This document shows, in pieces, positions 10,293 through 18,155 of a stretch of 46,575 nucleotides of DNA. The notes under the pieces were generated by a model. The model was not told where the DNA came from, made no database searches, and worked only from the letters and a program-made list of their open reading frames with translations. Every line of letters starts with the position of its first letter. Position 1 is the stretch's first letter. Both the position numbers and the translations under genes were made by a program. This stretch comes from an uncultured Dehalococcoidales bacterium (GTDB taxonomy: Bacteria > Chloroflexota > Dehalococcoidia > GIF9 > AB-539-J10), in contig CAYVCJ010000001.1 in the NCBI GenBank assembly GCA_964450165.1, positions 1 through 46,575 on the forward strand, given 5' to 3'.

Positions 10293-11034
10293 TATCTGCT
10301 AACGAAGGAAACAAACGAGCTGCCTTGTCTAAAGCTCCCAGAATACCATAGCAGATTGGCTTCGGAAGCTTGGAAAGAATGCTGCCCCACCAGGGCATAC
10401 CCCATAACAGAGATATTCCTTTGATGCTCTTTATTTGAAAGTTGGCCTTCACCAAATTGTAGAGTGATTGATAATCGAACTTATATGTATGGTCAACAGG
10501 TAAAACCCAGGGAGTTATTTGCTCTTCAGCTTTCGCCCCAAAAACCACTTTTAACCTGGTAACCTTTTTCCCTATACGAAAACCAAGACTCTCGAAATTG
10601 GCTATGGCAATTATCATCTCCCCTTCGGGCTTAAGCACTCTGGAAATTTCTTCCATGGTTTTACTTGGTGACATGAAGTGGTCCAGTGCTCCTTTGCACA
10701 TAACTTTATCGAAGAAGCATGACTTGAATGGTAGAGTCTCTCCCATACCCTGCAATAAAGCTACTGTCGTGTCAGCTTGAGCAAGGTGCTCCTTAGCTCG
10801 ACCTAGCATTACTCTAGAAGGCTCAAGACCGATAGCTATAGCCCCATTGTTCGCTAACTCAGCGGCATCAACAGCTCTACCACATCCTACATCTAATATA
10901 TATTCACCTTCTTTAGCAGCTACGTCTTGAATGATCAGGCGGGGTGTTTGTCGAAATAAGAACTCTAGGTCGGGATGTATTATCGGCGGCACTACATGGT
11001 CATCATCCCATTTCAAATCTAATTTTTCTTCCAT
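10252..11034 (-). CDS. Class I SAM-dependent methyltransferase
   Basis: [16 protein letters not shown] (motif I), LEPS, and [10 protein letters not shown]. Its 3' end overlaps the convergent methyltransferase by 41 nt. Confidence 0.75.
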
Positions 11035-11094
11035 GCTTCCGTTGCATCAATATTACCTCATCCACTACACTATATTCTACCCCTTGGCTTGTTA

Positions 11095-11123
11095 TTGCGT
11101 TGCCTGATGTTCCATGTCATAAT
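11095..11123 (+). promoter_or_regulatory. Candidate recA promoter giving a near-leaderless transcript
   Basis: TTGCGT (11095-11100), 17-nt spacer, CATAAT (11118-11123), then only 9 nt (ACCGCTGAA, no SD) before ATG 11133. Confidence 0.35.
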
Positions 11124-11132
11124 ACCGCTGAA

Positions 11133-12137
11133 ATGTCGACAGAGCGGGAAAAGACCATAGAATTAGCCATCGAGCAAATTGAAAGGCAATTCGGCAAGGG
11201 CTCGATTATGAAATTAGGCAAAGCTTCTGCTGGAGTACCTGTGGAAACTATCTCAACTGGTGCGATAGCTCTCGATTTGGCCCTAGGTGTTGGCGGCATA
11301 CCTAAAGGACGTGTTGTTGAAATCTTTGGTTCCGAAGGCTCAGGTAAAACCACTCTTGCCCAACATATAATTGCCGAAGCTCAAAAGGCTGGTGGCACTG
11401 CTGCGTATGTAGATGCTGAGCACGCACTTGACCCTACATATGCTAACAATTGTGGCGTACAGCTTGATGACTTGCTTATCTCCCAACCTGATACCGGCGA
11501 GGAAGCCCTGGAAATCACTGAGACTCTGGTAAGAAGTGGCGCCATAGATGTAATAGTTATTGATAGCGTAGCCGCATTGGTGCCTAGAGCAGAGATAGAA
11601 GGTGAGATGGGCGATGCCCATGTTGGCTTGCAAGCCCGCTTGATGTCTCAAGCGCTAAGGAAATTAGTCGCTGCTATCAGTAAATCGAAAACAGCAGTGG
11701 TATTTATCAATCAATTACGTGAAAAAGTAGGCATCATCTTTGGCAACCCAGAGATAACACCAGGGGGAAGAGCACTGAAATTCTATAGCTCAGTAAGGAT
11801 AGACTTAAGGAGAGGCGATGCCATTAAGCAAGGCACAGAGATAATTGGCACACGTGTCAGAGCTAGAGTGGTTAAGAACAAGGTATCTCCCCCATTTCGT
11901 AACACCGAATTCGATATAATGTTCAACCATGGGATAAGCAAGGAGGGAGGGTTACTCGACATTGGAGTAGCCACAGGCATAATAAAGAAACTTGGTGCGT
12001 TCTTCAATTATGGCGACACAAAATTGGGACAAGGAAGGGAGAATGCTAAGGACTACTTGACCCAACATCCTGAGGTCGCTTCACAACTGGAACGTGAGAT
12101 TAGAGCTGCAAATGCCTCTTTAGATACTTCCACTTAA
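11133..12137 (+). CDS. recA: Recombinase RecA
   Basis: [26 protein letters not shown], Walker [10 protein letters not shown], and [10 protein letters not shown]. The ORF-track start at 10944 is an unlikely upstream extension. Confidence 0.95.
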
Positions 12138-12187: not shown

Positions 12188-12682
12188 ATGGTAGGCAATA
12201 ATGATACTCTTCAGCGCTGCCTTGATTCAGCTTATCGGTATCTTAGTTACCGCCCCCGCAGTGAAGCTGAGATAAGGCAATGCCTGAAACGGCGCAGTTT
12301 TGATAGCGAAGTAGTGGAGAAAACAATCGCGAAACTTAAGGAGCAAAATTTGATTGACGATGTTGCTTTCGCACAGTTTTGGAAGAGTAATCGTTTATCT
12401 TTCAAGCCTAGGAGTAAAAGATTAATAATAAAGGAATTGAAGGATAAAAAGATAGCTCCGGAAGTTATCGAACAAGTAACTCAGGACATAGATGATGAAG
12501 CCAATGCTTATAAGCTAGGTTCCAGTCGGATGCATACCCTGGGTGAGTTAAATTACTTGGACTTCTATAGACGCCTATCCAGCTATCTTAGTTATCGTGG
12601 CTTTAGTTATGCTGTCATCAGACAAATCTTATCCCGCTTGTGGGAAGAAAAGAAGCAAATTAGTAACCAAATAAGCTTATAA
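12188..12682 (+). CDS. recX: RecA regulator RecX
   Basis: 164 aa directly downstream of recA. YLSYRPRSEAEIRQCL and repeated three-helix RecX pattern. Confidence 0.85.
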   Translation: MVGNNDTLQRCLDSAYRYLSYRPRSEAEIRQCLKRRSFDSEVVEKTIAKLKEQNLIDDVAFAQFWKSNRLSFKPRSKRLIIKELKDKKIAPEVIEQVTQDIDDEANAYKLGSSRMHTLGELNYLDFYRRLSSYLSYRGFSYAVIRQILSRLWEEKKQISNQISL

Positions 12683-13841
12683 ACACCCCAGCGGCGGCAG
12701 CCGTGCCAATGACACCAGCTACATTGGGCCCCATGGCATGCATTAGTAAGAAGTTTCTAGGATTAGCTTTTTGCCCCATTCTCTGAACGACTCTAGCTGA
12801 CATAGGCACGGCTGAAACACCAGCAGCCCCAATCATGGGATTTATCTTCGTCTTAAGTACCAAATTCATCAATTTAGCAAAAACCACACCTCCAGCAGTA
12901 GCCAGGGTGAAGGCAAATATACCAATAGCAAACACTAACAATGGTCCAGGATGTAGGAAGGATTGAGCTGATACGTAGGCACCCACACAGAAACCAAGGA
13001 AAATAGTTACTATATCCACGAAGCCGGTAGCTAATGAATTGGACAACCTATCAGTAACGCCAGTGACTGAAAGAAGATTACCCAGCATGAATGTCCCGAT
13101 GAGTGGTAATGCTGAAGGGACTAGAAGTCCAACGATGACAGTAGTATATATCGGGAAAGCTATCTTTTCGAGAGTAGAAACCGACCTTAATTGCGGCGCC
13201 ATATATATTGCTCGTTCCTTTTTGGTAGTCATAGCTCTAATGACCGGGGGTTGGATTAATGGCACCATAGCCATGTAAACATAAGCACTTATAGCGGTAA
13301 ACCCCATAAGATAAGGGGCCAGCGTCTGGGTGAGATAAACCGTGGTTGGACCGTCAGCACCACCTATGATTCCTATGCTGCAGGCCTCAGGAAGAGTAAA
13401 TCCTAATGCTATAGCTACGAACAAGGCGGCATAGACGCCTAATTGGGCTGCCGCCCCCAGTAAGAAATAGATAGGCCGGGCAATAAGAGGACCAAAGTCG
13501 GTCATGGCACCTAACCCGAGAAACATAAGAATAGGGATAATCTCCCACCCAAAACCATACTGGAAAATACGGGATAGAAATCCGATTGGCTCTCCACCCT
13601 GCCCTATTAATTCCACCCAGTGAGGTGGTAGATAACCCACAATAGTACCGTCGGGCATTTGGAAGCCCATGACCCCATAGCCTAAAGGTAAATTGCCCAT
13701 AATAATCCCAAAACCAATGGGCACCAAAATCAGCGGCTCCCATTTCTTAGCTATGCCAGCGTAAATGAATAACCCGCCGATGACGAGCATTATTAACTGC
13801 TGGTAACTGAAGGAAGCTAAGCTCTCCCCTATACCAAACAT
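12660..13841 (-). CDS. Sodium ion-translocating decarboxylase, beta subunit (OadB/MmdB/GcdB family)
   Basis: 393 aa, polytopic. N-terminal QQLIMLVIGGLFIYAGIAKKWEPLILVPIGFG and IGGADGPT are typical of the family. Confidence 0.85.
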   Translation of the reverse strand: MFGIGESLASFSYQQLIMLVIGGLFIYAGIAKKWEPLILVPIGFGIIMGNLPLGYGVMGFQMPDGTIVGYLPPHWVELIGQGGEPIGFLSRIFQYGFGWEIIPILMFLGLGAMTDFGPLIARPIYFLLGAAAQLGVYAALFVAIALGFTLPEACSIGIIGGADGPTTVYLTQTLAPYLMGFTAISAYVYMAMVPLIQPPVIRAMTTKKERAIYMAPQLRSVSTLEKIAFPIYTTVIVGLLVPSALPLIGTFMLGNLLSVTGVTDRLSNSLATGFVDIVTIFLGFCVGAYVSAQSFLHPGPLLVFAIGIFAFTLATAGGVVFAKLMNLVLKTKINPMIGAAGVSAVPMSARVVQRMGQKANPRNFLLMHAMGPNVAGVIGTAAAAGVFISLFGY

Positions 13842-14124: not shown

Positions 14125-14154
14125 TTGACACTATGTAGCCATGAAGGATATATT
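14125..14154 (+). promoter_or_regulatory. Candidate promoter for tRNA-Ile
   Basis: TTGACA (14125-14130), 18-nt spacer, TATATT (14149-14154), 11 nt before the mature tRNA 5' end. Confidence 0.4.
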
Positions 14155-14165
14155 TATTCAATAAA

Positions 14166-14239
14166 GGGCCATTAGCTCAGTTGGTTAGAGCACGGTCCTG
14201 ATAAGACCGGGGTCTGTGGTTCGAATCCACAATGGCCCA
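14166..14239 (+). tRNA. tRNA-Ile (anticodon GAT)
   Basis: Cloverleaf folded by hand: acceptor GGGCCAT/ATGGCCC, D stem GCTC/GAGC, anticodon stem CGGTC/GACCG with loop CTGATAA, T stem TGTGG/CCACA with loop TTCGAAT. No encoded CCA. Confidence 0.9.
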
Positions 14240-14328
14240 CTATAGGTGTAGAATGCCAATATGCATTAACCCCAGAGCGGCAAAAGAATTATAATCCGGG
14301 GTGAGATTCCCCAAGATTATGAAAGCAT

Positions 14329-16248
14329 ATGGAACCTAATATTGAGACACTTGAGCAAGCAGTAAGTCGAGCTGGCAAGCTTAGCCAGGAAGCAAGGAGA
14401 GCTGCAGAACAATCTGCAAGAGCTTCCCAAGATGCCATAAGCAGAGCTGAGGAAATTAGCCAGGCAGCCATACAGGCTGTTAAGGAAGCAAAGAGAGCCT
14501 CTCGCGACGCTATAAGCAAAGTTGAAAAAATTAGTCAGGCAACTATGGAGGCTGCCCAAGAATCAATAAAGGCAGCCCAAGAAGCAATAAGCAAAGCCCA
14601 GGCATCAGCGAAGACACTTGAAGAAACAGCAAGCAGGATTGAAACATCAGCCCAATCAGCCAAGGATGATACCGAAGCATTGCTAAAGGCATCCCAAGAA
14701 AGAATAAGCAGTGCTGAAGAAATAAGCCGTGCAGCCATCGAAGTTGCTAACAAAGCAGAGGAGGCATCTCGAGAAGCAATAGGTAGGACTGAGGAAGTAA
14801 GTCGTGCAGCAATAGAGGTTGCTGAAAAAGCGAAAAAGACATCACAGAAAGCGGCAACCAAAGCTGAAAAGATAAGTCAAGAAGCCAGAGAGGCTGCTGA
14901 AATACCAATAAAAGCATCGCAAGAAACAATAAGCAAGGCCGAGGCATCAATTAGGCTAGCCACGGAGGCTACGGAGGCGTCGCGAAGGACATTTGAAGAG
15001 GCAATAAGCAGAGCTGACGAAGTAAGTAAAACAGCTATGGAGGCTACACAAGCAGCATCGAGGGTGTTTCAAGAGGCCATGGGCAGAGCTGATAAGATAA
15101 GCAAAACAGCCATGGAGACTACCACGGCGACAGCAAGAGCATCGCAAAAAGCAATCGGTAAAGCTGAAGAAATAAGCCAGGTAGCTTGGGGAGCGGCTGA
15201 AGAGGCAAAAAGGGTGTCTCACGAAACGATGACTAGAGCTGAGAAGATAAGCCAATCAGCCCAGGAAGCGGCTCAAGAGGCAAAGAAACTGTCTCAGGAA
15301 GCAACAAGCAAAGCTGAAGAAATAAGCCAGGTAGCTTGGGGAGCGGCTGAAGAGGCAAAAAGGGTGTCTTACGAAGCGATGACTAGAGCCGAGAAGATGA
15401 GCCAAGGAGCCAAGGAAGCGGCTGAGGAGGCAAAGAAACTGTCTCAGGAAGCAACGAGCAAAGCTGAGAAGATAAGCCAGGCAGCCAAGCAAGCTGCTGA
15501 AGAAGCGAAAAGAGCATCTCAGGAAACAGAAGGTAAGGCTGAACAATTAATCAAATCAGTTATAGAGACTGTCGAAACGGCGGCAAAAACGTCCCGAGAA
15601 GCGATGCGAAGGGCTGAGGAAGCTGCCGAGGAAGCTAAGGGGGTCGCTAGGCAAGTAATAAACGAGGCTGAACAAATAAGCCGAGGCATCCTGGAGGACA
15701 CTGAAGAAGCAAAGAAAGCTTCTCAAAAGGCAATAAGCAAAGTTGACGAAGCAGGCCAAATGGCTAAGGAGACCGCTGAAGAAACGAAAAGAGCATCCCA
15801 GGCCGCTATAAATAAAGGTGAAGAAATAGCTGAAGCGGCTAGCAAAACCATTAGAAAATCTACTGAAGAAGCCAGCAAAGCTGTTATTGCCTCAATAAAG
15901 ACATTCGAAGAGGTAGTTAATAGAGCTGTGGAAACAAGTAAATCAGCCAGGAGGGCTGCAATAGCATCAGTACAAATATTTGAGGAGCTGATAGGCGAGG
16001 CCGGAAAAGAAAGCCAACAAGCTAAGGAAGTTACTGAGGAGCCAGCAAAGGTGTTTGAGGAAGCAATAAGTAAAGATGAAATCAGCGAGGAAGAAGAAGA
16101 GAAGAAGCCAGTAGAGCCCAGCAAGGAAATCGAGGCACGTTTGAACCTGCTCGCCAAAATGTATGCTGCCAATAAAGATAAATATGTTGAAGAAGTTGAA
16201 CAGATTGGGCTGGCAGCAGACGAAGAAGAAGATGTGGAGCAAGACTAA
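14329..16248 (+). CDS. Long alpha-helical tandem-repeat protein (about 20 x 25-residue units), function unknown
   Basis: 639-aa ORF. Almost only A/E/K/S/Q/I/T/R, with no signal peptide or TM segment. Unit consensus is roughly EAISKAEEISQAAxEAAEEAKRASQ. Acidic non-repeat C-terminal tail. Confidence 0.8.
   Translation: MEPNIETLEQAVSRAGKLSQEARRAAEQSARASQDAISRAEEISQAAIQAVKEAKRASRDAISKVEKISQATMEAAQESIKAAQEAISKAQASAKTLEETASRIETSAQSAKDDTEALLKASQERISSAEEISRAAIEVANKAEEASREAIGRTEEVSRAAIEVAEKAKKTSQKAATKAEKISQEAREAAEIPIKASQETISKAEASIRLATEATEASRRTFEEAISRADEVSKTAMEATQAASRVFQEAMGRADKISKTAMETTTATARASQKAIGKAEEISQVAWGAAEEAKRVSHETMTRAEKISQSAQEAAQEAKKLSQEATSKAEEISQVAWGAAEEAKRVSYEAMTRAEKMSQGAKEAAEEAKKLSQEATSKAEKISQAAKQAAEEAKRASQETEGKAEQLIKSVIETVETAAKTSREAMRRAEEAAEEAKGVARQVINEAEQISRGILEDTEEAKKASQKAISKVDEAGQMAKETAEETKRASQAAINKGEEIAEAASKTIRKSTEEASKAVIASIKTFEEVVNRAVETSKSARRAAIASVQIFEELIGEAGKESQQAKEVTEEPAKVFEEAISKDEISEEEEEKKPVEPSKEIEARLNLLAKMYAANKDKYVEEVEQIGLAADEEEDVEQD
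14698..15597 (+). repeat. Twelve consecutive in-register 75-nt (25-codon) coding repeats
   Basis: Residues 124-423 of the 639-aa ORF tile exactly into 25-mers (ERISSAEEISRAAIEVANKAEEASR ... ETEGKAEQLIKSVIETVETAAKTSR). Confidence 0.8.
15160..15459 (+). repeat. Near-identical 150-nt tandem duplication (2 copies, third copy begins at 15460)
   Basis: AAAGCTGAAGAAATAAGCCAGGTAGCTTGGGGAGCGGCTGAAGAGGCAAAAAGGGTGTCT occurs at 15160 and again at 15310. The rest of each unit differs at only a few positions. Confidence 0.85.
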
Positions 16249-16379
16249 GCAAAAGCGAGGCTATACAGACAATTGAAGCGGACTTGTTTGTGTTCAGGAC
16301 TTGTATCCTTGGGTAAACCTGCGTAAACGGCGAGTAAATGTATTAAGAGGAAAGATGTAATAGGAAAAGGAGGTATATT

Positions 16380-16877
16380 ATGTTGAGTCAGGAAGAGCAA
16401 TTTCCCGATACTGATATAGACGAAGGAAAAACTGAACAGCAAGTGAAGAAAGTTTCTAAGAAACCCAAGCAAGCCATAGAATCCCTTACTGAAATTCAGC
16501 AACGAGCAATGATGGCTTACGCGGCCTACATGGATGCTGAACGTCAGGTACAAGAGGCGTATAAGCAACAAGAACGACAGATAGAAAAGGTCTATGAAGG
16601 AGCTAAGCAACAAGCTGCGCAGGCTTGTGAGGAAAATATAGCACAGGCATTGAAAACGCGTGAAGCGACTAAGCAACAAGCTGCAAAGTCTTATGAAGAA
16701 ACTATAGCACAGGCATTGAAAGCTCACGAAGAGGCAGAGCAGCAAGCCAGCAGAATCTCTGAGGAAAACATAGCTCAAGCGTTAAAAATCCGTGAGGAGG
16801 CAGAACAACAAGCCTGGAAATCTCGAAATGAAGGTATAGAGCGTACATGGCAAATCTTTACTAAGAGCAAAGGCTAG
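16380..16877 (+). CDS. Small helical repeat protein (3-4 x 22-residue units), function unknown
   Basis: 165 aa. Strong SD AAGGAGG lies 7 nt before the ATG. Repeats are KQQAAQACEENIAQALKTREAT / KQQAAKSYEETIAQALKAHEEAE / QQASRISEENIAQALKIREEAE. Confidence 0.75.
   Translation: MLSQEEQFPDTDIDEGKTEQQVKKVSKKPKQAIESLTEIQQRAMMAYAAYMDAERQVQEAYKQQERQIEKVYEGAKQQAAQACEENIAQALKTREATKQQAAKSYEETIAQALKAHEEAEQQASRISEENIAQALKIREEAEQQAWKSRNEGIERTWQIFTKSKG
16605..16850 (+). repeat. 66/69-nt coding tandem repeats
   Basis: Unit starts at 16605, 16671, 16740 and 16806. The core ATAGCACAGGCATTGAAA is repeated. Confidence 0.7.
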
Positions 16878-16945
16878 GGAAAAACCTGCCTTCTTGCTAT
16901 GTCTCCATCTACTACGGGGAAGCTAATATATCAGCTATTTCGTAA

Positions 16946-18118
16946 TTACAACAGCACAGGAATATCACTGAAGATTTCTTCAACTTCTCTATTAGCATAC
17001 TGTAATCCCTGTCTCGCTTTCATAGCCGTGATCAAGTCAATTGCTTTGGTGAAGTAGTTTGTCACCTTTCCTAGAGCGTCAAAATCAGACAGAACTACAG
17101 AAACATCTACTGCCCTTTTTTGCCTAGGATAATCCCCACTTCGTATCAAGGCATTCGGGGCTACCGCCCTCAAATTGTCTCCAAGCTCTTTCATTACGTC
17201 CATATTCATCTCTCCAGCTGGTGCGGAGAGAAGGTAAAGAGCTCTCCTCGCACTTCTAGGGTCACATGTGAGCGACAGTTCACTTAGAGCCCTATCCATT
17301 GCATGGACTCCCTTGTTGGTTTCAGTCATCTTGTCCTTGAAGTGAGCTTTGTCCTTGAGCGGCAATTTCCTCCGCCGAATTAGCGATTTACCTACCCCAA
17401 TTGCTGTCCACCCTGCAAGAGTCTGTATTATATCTCCAGCGTCGAGCACCTTTGATCCAATATACTTTGGCTTCGTCTCCTCACCAGCACAAAGTAGATT
17501 GTAAAATGGCTCAACTATCCGGGCATTAATCCTCGCCAGGTTTTCTGAAATTGAGGAATCCTTCCTGATATACCTCTGGTTATCAACAAGAATTATGGCG
17601 TCAGCTATTAAATATACCGATTTAAGGCAAATAGCAGTATTGTAAATCGTTCTTGCTTCGGATGTTTCTTCCTGTCGAAAAGGGAGAACAATTATATTAT
17701 AAATTGGTTTTCCTACATAGCGCTCTTTTAGGAACCGCGTTAATACCCCTATTGCTCCAGAGCCAGTGCCCCCGGCAGCACCGGCAATCAATAGAAAAGC
17801 ATCAGTTTCAGGAAACCGTTCCGCTGCCCTTACAGCATCTATGATCTTGTCGCCGTCTTCCCTCGCTATTTCAGCGCCAAGTTCACTTATCTTACCTACT
17901 CCATGCCCACCAGTCTTTTGCCCTCCCACAACAATCCTGTGTTTGTAGTCAGCTTTGATGTTGGATAGTCCACTTAAATCAGCAATGTCTGTATTAATAG
18001 CGAAGATATCAGCAATTACGTCAAGTTTGCGTACAACTTGGGCTCTCTTGTTAAGCCAGGCAAACCTATCAGCAATTCTGCCACCACATTGCCCCAGACC
18101 CATAACTAGTAGCTTCAT
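16946..18118 (-). CDS. Tubulin/FtsZ-superfamily GTPase, CetZ/tubulin-like rather than canonical FtsZ
   Basis: 390 aa. GLGQCGG (res 7-13), INTD (41-44), GGHGVG (70-75), GAAGGTGSG (113-121; nt 17756-17773 encode GGTGSG), VDNQRY (178-183), LDAGDIIQTLAG (225-236), GDYP (328-331). C-terminus is EEIFSDIPVLL. Confidence 0.8.
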   Translation of the reverse strand: MKLLVMGLGQCGGRIADRFAWLNKRAQVVRKLDVIADIFAINTDIADLSGLSNIKADYKHRIVVGGQKTGGHGVGKISELGAEIAREDGDKIIDAVRAAERFPETDAFLLIAGAAGGTGSGAIGVLTRFLKERYVGKPIYNIIVLPFRQEETSEARTIYNTAICLKSVYLIADAIILVDNQRYIRKDSSISENLARINARIVEPFYNLLCAGEETKPKYIGSKVLDAGDIIQTLAGWTAIGVGKSLIRRRKLPLKDKAHFKDKMTETNKGVHAMDRALSELSLTCDPRSARRALYLLSAPAGEMNMDVMKELGDNLRAVAPNALIRSGDYPRQKRAVDVSVVLSDFDALGKVTNYFTKAIDLITAMKARQGLQYANREVEEIFSDIPVLL

Positions 18119-18125
18119 TCAAGTT

Positions 18126-18155
18126 ATTTTAGCTAAATTTGTATCATGATGTCAA
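18126..18155 (-). promoter_or_regulatory. Near-consensus promoter for the tubulin-like gene; predicted leaderless mRNA
   Basis: Minus strand: TTGACA (18155-18150), 18-nt spacer, TAAAAT (18131-18126), then 7 nt (AACTTGA, no SD) before ATG at 18118. Confidence 0.45.

Follow-up and report, generated by a model that had tools for sequence, protein, structure and literature searches.

What does a tubulin-superfamily GTPase do beside two strongly repetitive helical proteins in a bacterium that has no peptidoglycan? The question is raised by a 46,575-nucleotide stretch of an uncultured Dehalococcoidales genome (the window), in which a GTPase gene converges on the genes for two such proteins, REP1 and REP2 (Table 1), in an order whose members no longer carry the dcw/peptidoglycan genes and are enclosed by an S-layer-like wall (PMC10608941). 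A preliminary description made from the DNA had read the three genes as a cytoskeletal module, and the sequence comparisons presented here support that reading. The explanation that we hold to be marginally better than even is a conserved cytoskeletal module of Dehalococcoidia, a group of Chloroflexota, in which a filament-forming CetZ-like GTPase would work with dedicated long-helix partners, possibly in shaping peptidoglycan-less cells.

Organization of the Locus

All three open reading frames were recovered where they had first been described, with the opposing stop codons 68 nt apart. No convincing intrinsic terminator emerged from a scan of this gap, and the homologous gaps span about 68–135 nt as measured from tblastn match ends and 12–13 nt in two distant relatives as measured from called gene coordinates. 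Since the REP genes and the GTPase gene are convergent and do not form one operon, their synteny cannot be read as co-transcription; it might even mirror antagonistic expression. REP2 has a ribosome-binding site (AAAGGAGGT) 4 nt 5' of its ATG, and the putative promoter-like site upstream of the GTPase gene suggests that this gene may have transcription of its own, separate from that of the ribosomal operon. The locus had been taken for the only non-housekeeping block in the window, which it is not: a histone-deacetylase-family gene, a glycosyltransferase, methyltransferases, radical-SAM genes and a TPR gene occur elsewhere in it. Similarly, classical partner genes are indeed absent from the window, as had been noted, but a canonical ftsA-ftsZ pair exists in the lineage, namely in the related genome L014.

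Table 1. Features of the three-gene locus (window coordinates)
Feature	Position	Strand	Length or basis
Promoter-like site TTAACC-18-TATAAT, 34 nt 5' of REP1 start codon	14266..14295	+	consensus scan, 10/12; pattern match only
REP1 ORF	14329..16248	+	639 aa
REP1 N-terminal cap M..N.x.FEQAVxRAEKLSQAA	14329..14394	+	conserved, alignment of 12 REP1 proteins
REP1 repeat body, ~22 units of 25 residues, consensus ISRAEKISQSAIEAAEEAKKASQEA	14404..16068	+	
REP1 C-terminal amphipathic helix motif EIEARLNLLAKMYAANK	16126..16176	+	conserved, REP1 alignment; predicted helix 599-627
REP1 acidic C-terminal tail EEVEQIGLAADEEEDVEQD	16189..16245	+	sequence and alignment of 12 REP1 proteins
REP2 ORF	16380..16877	+	165 aa
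Gap between convergent stop codons	16878..16945	.	68 nt
A-type CetZ-like tubulin-superfamily GTPase ORF	16946..18118	-	390 aa
GTPase C-terminal tail DIPVLL	16949..16966	-	tail census of 54 sequences
GTPase T7-loop region LDAGDI	17429..17446	-	aligned to VDSSEI of 4b46 chain
GTPase T4 signature loop GAAGGTGSG	17756..17782	-	>90% conserved in 54 homologues
GTPase T1 nucleotide-binding loop GLGQCGG	18080..18100	-	sequence position
Promoter-like site TTGACA-18-TAAAAT, between rpsI and GTPase start codon	18126..18155	-	consensus scan, 11/12; pattern match only

The GTPase and Its C-Terminal Tail

The CetZ-like character first ascribed to the GTPase is borne out by its Pfam hits, Tubulin at 6.8e-31 and CetZ_C at 1.8e-17 (63.8 bits, cut-off 21.6). 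Among solved structures, the best matches are the archaeal CetZ entries 4b46, 4b45 and 3zid (3.6e-38 to 2.2e-16), with the best FtsZ at 4.5e-10. Pfam finds no FtsZ_C domain in the GTPase, and its TIGR00065 score of 54 bits lies below the cut-off of 295. Its T1 loop, which we take to be of the tubulin/CetZ type and not of the FtsZ GGGxxN type, corresponds to GQAGG in archaeal CetZ, and a rough neighbour-joining tree sets the protein, as part of a 'GQCG' clade, apart from the 'GQAG' clade that contains HvCetZ1. Judged by sequence, the GTPase falls into a bacterial group that is sister to archaeal CetZ; a phylogenetic survey that includes a Dehalococcoidia group among its 'CetZ-like' sequences gives this group one line (PMC9871819). 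Conservation of the T1, T4 and T7 motifs exceeds 90% among 54 homologues, and the alignment of the T7 region with that of 4b46 indicates that the GTPase has the acidic residue that should activate GTP hydrolysis in the next subunit. The nucleotide-binding and T7 motifs are intact. The protein had also been described as divergent, but within its own group it is not especially so: homologues of 65–99% identity are abundant in Dehalococcoidia, and the search for them returned 5668 of 8000 scored candidates at E<=0.001, with all of the 120 matches listed being 64–99% identical.

The tail of the A-type GTPases, to which the window's protein belongs, has the consensus F-x-[DE]-I-P-[VLMI]-L-L in a census of 54 sequences. 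This tail had first been described as being of a partner-docking type. The further suggestion that it docks onto the ends of the REP proteins is weakened by the occurrence of [DE]-[ILV]-P-x-L-L in the sister B-type paralogue and in more distantly related GTPases, both without a REP neighbour, and by its likeness to the C-terminal peptide of the lineage's own FtsZ. One might ask whether the CetZ-like GTPase joins the Z-ring by an FtsZ-like tail, with the REP proteins in ZapB- or EzrA-like roles, which we regard as rather unlikely. The tail does resemble the FtsZ C-terminal peptide of L014 (SIPAFMR), in which genome the B-type paralogue also lies about 2 kb from ftsA-ftsZ, and in one proteome the GTPase falls along with a protein annotated as FtsZ (PMC8163811). 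However, the A-type gene never adjoins ftsA-ftsZ at the loci examined. Moreover, archaeal CetZ proteins are reportedly not required for division.

REP1 and REP2 as Helical Repeat Proteins

REP1 is an acidic protein (net charge -27) of biased composition (A 21%, E 18%, K 10%, S 10%). Its 25-residue repeat, as first described, is confirmed by autocorrelation (top lags 25, 50, 75 and 100, with 36% identity at lag 25), by DNA repeats of 75 and 150 nt (Tandem Repeats Finder) and by a hydrophobicity spectrum with a single dominant peak at 3.57 residues, i.e., 25/7, a single Ile/Ala/Ser stripe running along the repeat body at this spacing. A low-confidence AlphaFold2 model from the single sequence (pLDDT 60) has helices at 5–190, 198–454, 459–580 and 599–627 and tentatively points to an almost entirely alpha-helical protein. 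Homologues range from 187 to 735 aa in total length; the C-terminal motif is retained even in REP1-like proteins beside GTPases only 45–46% identical (IAGRLQNLVRMHTTGK, IASRLQSLVRMHTTAR), although the repeat there has changed to a 72-residue period. REP1 matches no Pfam family above cut-off and lacks a transmembrane segment (its 19-residue hydropathy peaks at 0.49); the protein database yielded no set of REP1 homologues.

REP2 is likewise acidic, and its 11/22-residue repeat is equally evident in the autocorrelation (lags 22, 44 and 11), in a 66-nt DNA repeat and in a hydrophobic period of 3.68, near 11/3. Residues 1–35, with a KK..KK patch, are predicted to be disordered, and residues 36–164 to form one continuous helix of 129 residues (AlphaFold2 with 43 sequences, pLDDT 98), while two alignments (A1 and A2) reveal the conserved blocks QQRAxAAYxAYxEAxRQ..AYKxQE and ERTWxxFTK. 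No relative was found in Pfam, NCBIfam, PADLOC or among solved structures, nor a transmembrane segment (maximum 19-residue hydropathy 0.16), and inspection reveals no evident signal peptide in either REP protein. The REP2 homologues fall into 57 clusters, the few with a source name being hypothetical or from Dehalococcoidia/Chloroflexota, except for two automatic JGI labels; btf_0548 was not confirmed as a REP homologue, and REP2-type domain proteins occur also away from any GTPase. Both REP proteins are lineage-specific, cytoplasmic, acidic and nearly all-helical, with non-heptad stripes of 3.57 and 3.67 residues. The GTPase of the window is basic (net charge +9), and with pI values of about 9.0 for the A-type, 7.0 for the B-type and 5 for both REP proteins, the charges are complementary only for the REP-linked paralogue.

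Stathmin/Op18, to which REP2 has no homology, has the general form of a long helix with a disordered N-terminal cap and associates with tubulin, and the predicted structure of REP2 invites a parallel whereby REP1 and REP2 would oppose assembly, lying along the GTPase subunits to sequester or cap them, with the convergent layout providing reciprocal control. The complementary charges and the convergent genes with short gaps and no clear terminator would suit such an arrangement. Yet it is quite unlikely: repeats of 25 and 22 residues correspond to about 3.7 and 3.3 nm of helix, a mismatch with the approximately 4.3-nm subunit spacing of tubulin-family protofilaments, and the roughly four-fold length range of REP1 is easier to reconcile with a spacer than with a factor that sequesters subunits stoichiometrically. 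Also against it, the GTPase of D. mccartyi and the hypothetical protein next to it go up and down in parallel (PMC8163811).

We find it just as improbable that REP1 makes a nucleotide-independent filament or lattice of its own under the membrane, in the manner of an intermediate filament, with the GTPase only positioning or remodelling it. A parallel can be drawn with Scy, FilP and crescentin, which are also very long helical rods with odd periodicities (25/7 = 3.57 and 11/3 = 3.67 in the REP proteins) and conserved ends; the unusual repeats of Scy and FilP resemble the REP1 stripe, which stays coherent at 3.57–3.63 residues over more than 500 residues of rod. However, family and profile searches detect no sequence similarity of the REP proteins to known coiled-coil-rich cytoskeletal proteins, the REP1 core is only weakly hydrophobic because its positions are mostly Ala, Ser and Ile, and a version of just 187 aa is short for a filament former. 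The REP proteins also differ from Scy, FilP and crescentin in their obligate association with a tubulin homologue.

Linkage across Genomes

The co-occurrence of the three genes, singled out at the start as the key test of the cytoskeletal reading, is seen from both directions. Among 17 GTDB loci seeded with the GTPase, the 13 of A-type (61–94% identity) all have a convergent REP1-like gene, and 12 of them REP2 too; in 54 metagenome loci seeded with REP2, a convergent GTPase is found wherever there is downstream room (45/45) and REP1 wherever there is upstream room (43/43). Nor is the neighbourhood lost upon rearrangement, as had been envisaged if the genes were unrelated: the trio stays intact through at least seven flanking contexts on the GTPase side and at least six on the REP1 side, and REP2-like or REP1-like genes are convergent to GTPases of only 45–50% identity. 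These patterns establish that REP1, REP2 and the GTPase gene are inherited as a unit, though REP2 is dispensable in some lineages, being absent from one locus that has REP1 (L012) and from two distant loci with a REP1-like gene alone beside the GTPase.

It is accordingly highly unlikely that REP1 and REP2 are phasin-, apolipoprotein- or LEA-like proteins that cover lipid or granule surfaces, with a functionless adjacency to the GTPase: 11-mer based repeats and an A/E/K-rich composition are typical of such proteins, and Phasin_2 is matched weakly (E=0.0039; 17.8 bits, with the cut-off at 24.9), but adjacency of this extent, down to 45% GTPase identity, would be very unlikely for unrelated genes, both REP groups are true conserved families with specific motifs outside the repeats and not generic low-complexity or LEA-like sequence, and the acidic tail after the REP1 amphipathic helix would argue against binding to anionic membranes.

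A Proposed Mechanism and Its Parallels

If the three genes do constitute a cytoskeletal module, the GTPase would polymerise with GTP into protofilaments, like CetZ1, FtsZ and tubulin. REP1 would be a rod of variable length with its conserved ends as the working parts; the amphipathic helix and acidic tail at its C-terminus are the parts that we propose to bind the A-type GTPase, which is unusually basic. REP2 may be an adaptor or bundling factor made of one 19-nm helix that forms coiled coils, and the two together might tether, space or stabilise GTPase filaments under the membrane and S-layer envelope. The [DE]-I-P-x-L-L tail, for its part, would more likely dock a partner shared with the B-type, e.g., the membrane anchor FtsA, than the REP proteins.

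The closest parallel is archaeal CetZ (Haloferax volcanii CetZ1/CetZ2; PDB 4B46, 4B45, 3ZID), with which the module shares the Tubulin/FtsZ GTPase domain with CetZ_C, the T1 GQxGG, T4 GGTGSG and T7 acidic residue, and hosts that have an S-layer, lack peptidoglycan and also carry a canonical FtsZ. The difference is that the host here is bacterial, whereas CetZ has been described as archaea-specific (PMC9856176, PMC11621097), and archaeal cetZ has pili, purine, F420 and epimerase genes for neighbours where the module has helical-repeat partners (PMC9856176). FtsZ with ZapA, ZapB, EzrA, SepF and FtsA likewise combines a tubulin-superfamily protein with long-helix proteins and a short conserved C-terminal peptide, but the module's GTPase has no FtsZ_C, the lineage holds a separate true FtsZ-FtsA pair, and family and profile searches detect no similarity of REP1 or REP2 to the Zap, EzrA or SepF families. 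TubZ-TubR-TubY, PhuZ and BtubA/B-BtubC also place a non-FtsZ tubulin homologue beside dedicated partner genes; these are, however, systems of plasmids, phages or Prosthecobacter whose partners bind DNA or are TPR proteins, while the present module is chromosomal, lies amid core genes, is widespread in one class, has repeat-helix partners and gives no significant match to phage or defence families. The REP families, going by source-named homologue clusters, are not known outside Dehalococcoidia and have no Pfam domain or annotation, and no description of the three-gene module was found in the literature.

CetZ1 polymerises with GTP and controls the plate-to-rod shape transition in S-layer-walled haloarchaea (10.1101/2024.04.08.588506, PMC13556191), and by analogy the module possibly has a role in cell shape. 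In D. mccartyi, the GTPase and the neighbouring hypothetical protein are reduced or not detected in co-cultures whose cells show an abnormal barrel morphology (PMC8163811). If the module does act on shape, a wall-less cell would gain control over its form or the organisation of its envelope, in addition to having the canonical FtsA-FtsZ divisome, and the module looks like an undescribed internal skeleton of a wall-less bacterial group.

A Conserved Convergent Three-Gene Locus

The preliminary description had placed in the window two genes for helical-repeat proteins (hereafter REP1 and REP2) and, converging on them, one for a tubulin-superfamily GTPase, and had asked whether the three co-occur across genomes. 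An ORF listing of the window recovers all three exactly at the positions claimed, with the stop codons of REP2 and the GTPase gene facing each other across 68 nt. A shared bidirectional terminator was sought in this gap, with no convincing hairpin followed by a T-run being detected. The antisense ORFs running across REP1 and REP2 are by-products of the repeats: between 14000 and 17000, the REP coding strand shows a strong purine excess (AT skew 0.33–0.48, GC skew at most 0.23), which is distinctive within the window and gives rise to several long spurious antisense ORFs.

Coordinates of features in the window and at related loci (L, loci from other genomes or contigs; P, proteins from database searches)
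Feature	Position	Strand	Remarks
recA ORF as called	10944-12137		GTG start
recX	12188-12682	+	
recX/decarboxylase overlap	12660-12682		convergent 3' overlap, 23 nt
Na+-translocating decarboxylase beta-subunit gene	12660-13841	-	
Promoter-like site of tRNA-Ile(GAT)	14125-14154		TTGACA-18-TATATT, near-consensus
tRNA-Ile(GAT)	14166-14240	+	solitary, between oxaloacetate-decarboxylase beta-subunit gene and REP1
Promoter-like site	14266-14295		before REP1, consensus pattern match
REP1	14329-16248	+	ORF, 639 aa
REP2	16380-16877	+	ORF, 165 aa
GTPase	16946-18118	-	ORF, 390 aa
Promoter-like site	18155-18126		opposite strand, between rpsI and GTPase, consensus pattern match
B-type GTPase loci	L012:5915-10646; L014:549-1724; L015:8001-9176; L016:491-1672; L017:6874-8046		
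Canonical ftsA-ftsZ	L014:3742-6170	-	Pfam FtsA; Tubulin and FtsZ_C; FtsZ tail EELSIPAFMRQRR
nuo cluster beside B-type/B-like GTPase	L017:1262-6735; L081/L082:1-4749		GTPase just downstream and divergent
REP2-type domains away from any GTPase	L072:6001-7050; L075:77-1036		
P0160	L088:189-953		254-aa ORF on a single 1026-nt Logan contig
CetZ-like gene before two tandem ftsH genes	L086:5001-10312		39% identical, tail GLPSLLETEED

A survey seeded with the GTPase, covering one genome per GTDB species, yielded 17 loci with two paralogues, namely the A-type, to which the GTPase of the window belongs, and its sister, the B-type. The 13 A-type loci (61–94% identical to the window GTPase) all possess a convergent REP1-like gene coding for 488–728 aa with a 25-residue period directly past the GTPase stop codon, and in 12 of them a REP2 gene (126–186 aa) lies between the two. 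Reciprocally, searching metagenome contigs with a REP2 profile returned 54 loci, wherein a convergent GTPase (62–98% identity) is found in all 45 that extend 400 nt or more downstream, with match ends about 68–135 nt apart, and a REP1-like gene in all 43 that extend 500 nt or more upstream. This answers the decisive question of the preliminary description: the trio is conserved. Clustering of the flanks distinguishes seven differing contexts on the GTPase side and six on the REP1 side; the linkage of the three genes is very tight, reciprocal and survives rearrangement, and there is a strong case that they are functionally linked. A role of the GTPase defined by its adjacency to the ribosomal operon (rpsI) was rejected, as this context is kept in only 7 of the 54 REP2-seeded and 5 of the 13 A-type GTDB loci.

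Beyond the A-type, convergent REP2-like genes accompany GTPases of 48–50% identity (P0179, P0180), and convergent REP1-like genes (187 and 735 aa) accompany those of 45–46% identity (P0185, P0187). The repeat of the 735-aa protein has drifted to a 72-residue period, and both of these REP1-like proteins retain the hydrophobic stripe (3.59–3.63 residues) and the C-terminal motif. No REP-like neighbor accompanies four further-removed relatives of the GTPase (P0189, P0195, P0207, P0184), so the association is limited to the A-type and one neighboring clade. On a tree without support values, the GTPase-REP link may predate the split between A- and B-types.

Elsewhere in the window, recX and the decarboxylase gene overlap at their 3' ends, and the latter gene is inverted in two related loci (L004 and L011) relative to the arrangement in a third (L003). 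The recA ORF as called begins some 60 codons ahead of the conserved recA N-terminus (MSTEREKT…), reaching into the neighboring methyltransferase gene; an internal ATG near 11130 probably marks the true start.

A CetZ-Like GTPase in Bacteria

The GTPase matches the Pfam Tubulin profile (PF00091, E = 6.8e-31) and carries the CetZ-type C-terminal domain CetZ_C (PF21011; 63.8 bits against a cut-off of 21.6), a domain also precomputed on 120 of 120 homologues among the matches listed. Its closest solved structures are archaeal CetZ proteins (4b46, 3.6e-38; 4b45, 5.6e-23; 3zid, 2.2e-16), with the best FtsZ chain (4.5e-10) and the best tubulin-like chain (1.5e-9) far behind. Both the T1 loop (GLGQCGG) and the T4 loop (GAAGGTGSG) are preserved intact, with conservation above 90% across 54 homologues. 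The T7-loop LDAGDI aligns with VDSSEI of CetZ1 (4b46), such that the acidic residue is present, and it is conserved. In the tubulin/FtsZ superfamily, such a residue completes the active site of the neighboring subunit and is required for polymerization-coupled GTP hydrolysis. By its sequence, therefore, the GTPase is a bacterial CetZ-like protein with intact catalytic motifs. An assignment to FtsZ was rejected (TIGR00065 at 54.2 bits against an equivalog cut-off of 295.2, and no match to FtsZ_C, PF12327).

Homologues at 65–99% identity are plentiful in Dehalococcoidia and Chloroflexota and, where labeled at all, bear names such as "tubulin/FtsZ family protein" or "FtsZ"; among 1.84 billion representative proteins, there are 1058 relatives at E ≤ 0.001, with identity grading from 51% to 26%. 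A rough neighbor-joining tree without support values separates a clade with a GQCG T1 loop from one with a GQAG T1 loop. The former holds the Dehalococcoidia proteins, A- and B-types included, along with relatives, mostly ending in [DE]-[ILV]-P-x-L-L, and is sister to the latter, which contains Haloferax CetZ1; the GTPase is thus placed outside the canonical CetZ clade. A previous phylogenetic survey likewise termed Dehalococcoidia sequences 'CetZ-like' and placed them outside the supported canonical CetZ node (PMC9871819). The group has been noticed once already, in that survey, and is routinely annotated as FtsZ. CetZ has been described as archaea-specific (PMC9856176, PMC11621097), whereas the host here is bacterial, as indicated by the recA-recX pair and the rpoA-rplQ-truA-rplM-rpsI operon of the window; the related loci come from Dehalococcoidia MAGs with ftsA-ftsZ, and the window itself derives from a bacterium of that class.

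Sequence and Predicted Structure of REP1 and REP2

REP1 is rich in Ala (21%), Glu (18%), Lys (10%) and Ser (10%), and its 25-residue repeat is visible as BLOSUM autocorrelation peaks at lags of 25, 50, 75 and 100 (36% identity at lag 25) and as 75- and 150-nt units in Tandem Repeats Finder. REP2 repeats at 22 and 11 residues (66-nt DNA units), and its lineages differ by the gain or loss of entire 22-residue units. For each protein, the Fourier spectrum of hydrophobicity has a single dominant peak, at 3.57 residues (25/7) for REP1 and 3.68 (11/3) for REP2; both sequences thus read as coherent amphipathic helices whose stripes are not heptad. Transmembrane segments are absent from both, and inspection reveals no signal peptide.

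Alignments of REP2 reveal invariant residues in the blocks QQRAxAAYxAYxEAxRQ..AYKxQE and ERTWxxFTK. Its homologues form 57 clusters, none with a Pfam domain over the REP2 region, and the few source names read "hypothetical" or Dehalococcoidia, bar two automatic JGI labels. An AlphaFold2 model built from 43 sequences predicts a disordered segment (1–35) followed by one unbroken helix (36–164, pLDDT 98) of about 19 nm, which as a lone helix would need a partner or self-association for stability. In REP1, alignments show conservation of an N-terminal cap (FEQAVxRAEKLSQAA) and of a C-terminal amphipathic motif (E-[IV]-x-[AS]-R-L-[DN]-[FL]-L-A-[KR]-M-Y-A), after which comes an acidic tail. A database search with full-length REP1 returned no homologues, probably due to its low complexity; hence, it was modeled without an alignment, and this low-confidence, single-sequence model is nearly all helix (5–190, 198–454, 459–580 and, past a linker, 599–627). 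A spacer or tether might be expected to show just this combination of conserved ends and a body whose length varies about four-fold.

That the likeness between loci is mere composition is ruled out by the motifs AAYxAY, ERTWxxFTK and RLxxLxxMY together with the fixed gene order, and REP1 and REP2 are two new, genuine protein families of the long-helix type. No known family claims them: a phasin identity was rejected (Phasin_2 at 17.8 bits, under the 24.9 cut-off), the Pfam search yielded no LEA family, and no likeness to ZapA, ZapB, EzrA, SepF, TubR or TubY emerged from Pfam, NCBIfam or the sequences of solved structures, among which the REPs retrieve noise or designed helical repeat proteins only. 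Foldseek found no match of note to the REP2 model. As PADLOC gave no match and PHROGs only weak ones (E ≥ 6e-5), to families without a known function, a defense or phage origin was rejected.

The Sister Paralogue and Other Relatives

The B-type is represented by four loci and a second copy in L012, with the tail K-D-[IV]-P-[ST]-L-L, and no REP gene lies beside the B-type GTPase in any of its loci. Only five positions distinguish A- from B-type residues, without a clear surface patch. In L012, the A-type gene, REP1 and the B-type gene are grouped, the first convergent with and the last divergent from REP1, with no REP2, an arrangement that may be close to the ancestral duplication. B-type or B-like GTPases repeatedly lie beside the complex I (nuo) cluster, which is a second, different conserved context for them. 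In L014, ftsA-ftsZ lies about 2 kb from the B-type gene; the co-existence of ftsA-ftsZ and the CetZ-like genes implies three tubulin-superfamily genes in these bacteria.

In P0160, the initial ~115 residues of a B-like tubulin GTPase domain, which breaks off within the T4 loop, run into an entire REP2-type domain; the ORF is a chimera of the assembly or else a genuine fusion linking both families. Some REP2-type domains (AYAAYxEAxR…WxIY[ST]K) have no GTPase nearby. A PAS domain precedes one of them in a fusion (P0165); another, with a C-terminal extension, is immediately followed by a PemK/MazF-family toxin gene (P0168). Two CetZ-like proteins (P0181 and P0183, 47–49% identical) bear, instead of the short tail, a ~100-residue C-terminal extension with the common motif …TQPSLSFEG[IV][LV]P…. 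Given the clearly bacterial context of the more distant CetZ-like gene in L086, directly followed by two ftsH genes, such proteins are not confined to Dehalococcoidia among bacteria.

A Candidate CetZ-Like Filament and Its Partners

The A-type GTPases carry a mean net charge of +8 and are basic (pI about 9.0), the B-types are neutral (pI about 7), and both REPs are acidic (pI about 5); thus, charge complementarity tracks the REP-linked paralogue. The tail form F-x-D-I-P-V-L-L is common to the B-type and to distant relatives without REP neighbors, and is similar to the C-terminal peptide of FtsZ from the lineage itself (…EELSIPAFMRQRR in L014), suggesting that it would dock a common partner, e.g., a membrane anchor, rather than the REPs.

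These features can be accommodated in a model wherein the GTPase would form filaments, REP1 would be a variable-length rod whose C-terminal helix and acidic tail bind the basic GTPase, and REP2 would be a coiled-coil adaptor or bundler, with the module organizing the envelope (membrane plus S-layer) or the shape of the cell, in parallel to FtsA-FtsZ. We consider this model of the REPs as partners of the filament slightly more probable than not. The same genes could alternatively constitute an accessory to division; the REPs might oppose assembly in the manner of stathmin; REP1 might form an autonomous intermediate-filament-like lattice; or the REPs might be unrelated amphipathic coat proteins. 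As a type, the trio would be a tubulin-superfamily filament with dedicated accessory proteins and not a categorically new system. A literature search found neither reported direct binding partners of CetZ nor any description of the REP families or the trio.

Implications for Dehalococcoidia

Dehalococcoidales and SAR202 have lost dcw/peptidoglycan genes, keeping mraZ-mraW-ftsA-ftsZ and an S-layer-like wall (PMC10608941), and the retention of ftsA-ftsZ is confirmed in L014. Dehalococcoides mccartyi 195 has, in addition to ftsZ and ftsA (DET0343 and DET0342), two more "FtsZ" genes, DET0589 and DET0636 (PMC5102406), which would fit the A and B paralogues. In D. mccartyi co-cultures with unusual barrel-shaped cells, the GTPase and a neighboring hypothetical protein were both lower or unquantifiable (PMC8163811), an indirect correlation of proteome and morphology. 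Among the genes btf_0548 to btf_0551 of D. mccartyi BTF08, btf_0548 may be a REP homologue. Haloarchaeal CetZ1 polymerizes in a GTP-dependent fashion and drives the plate-to-rod change (10.1101/2024.04.08.588506, PMC13556191), and its hosts, like Dehalococcoidales, have an S-layer and no murein. By this analogy, a role specifically in cell shape may be entertained, if tentatively. Rather unlikely as it stands is the broader proposal that Dehalococcoidia possess a chromosomal housekeeping CetZ-type cytoskeleton with its own class of rod-like partners, which would replace the lost peptidoglycan/MreB machinery for cell shape, with REP1, a spacer or ruler of variable length, lying between the filament and the envelope. 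If true, bacteria would have an equivalent of the haloarchaeal CetZ system, and the REPs would be the first set of tubulin-associated proteins to be defined for a CetZ-like filament.

The strictly conserved trio supplies concrete candidate partners for a CetZ-like protein, and two unannotated protein families would gain a functional context. With it, the CetZ-like branch of the tubulin superfamily comes to include a bacterial class that is widespread and of environmental importance. The trio also bears on how bacteria without peptidoglycan, such as the disc-shaped Dehalococcoides cell, hold their shape.
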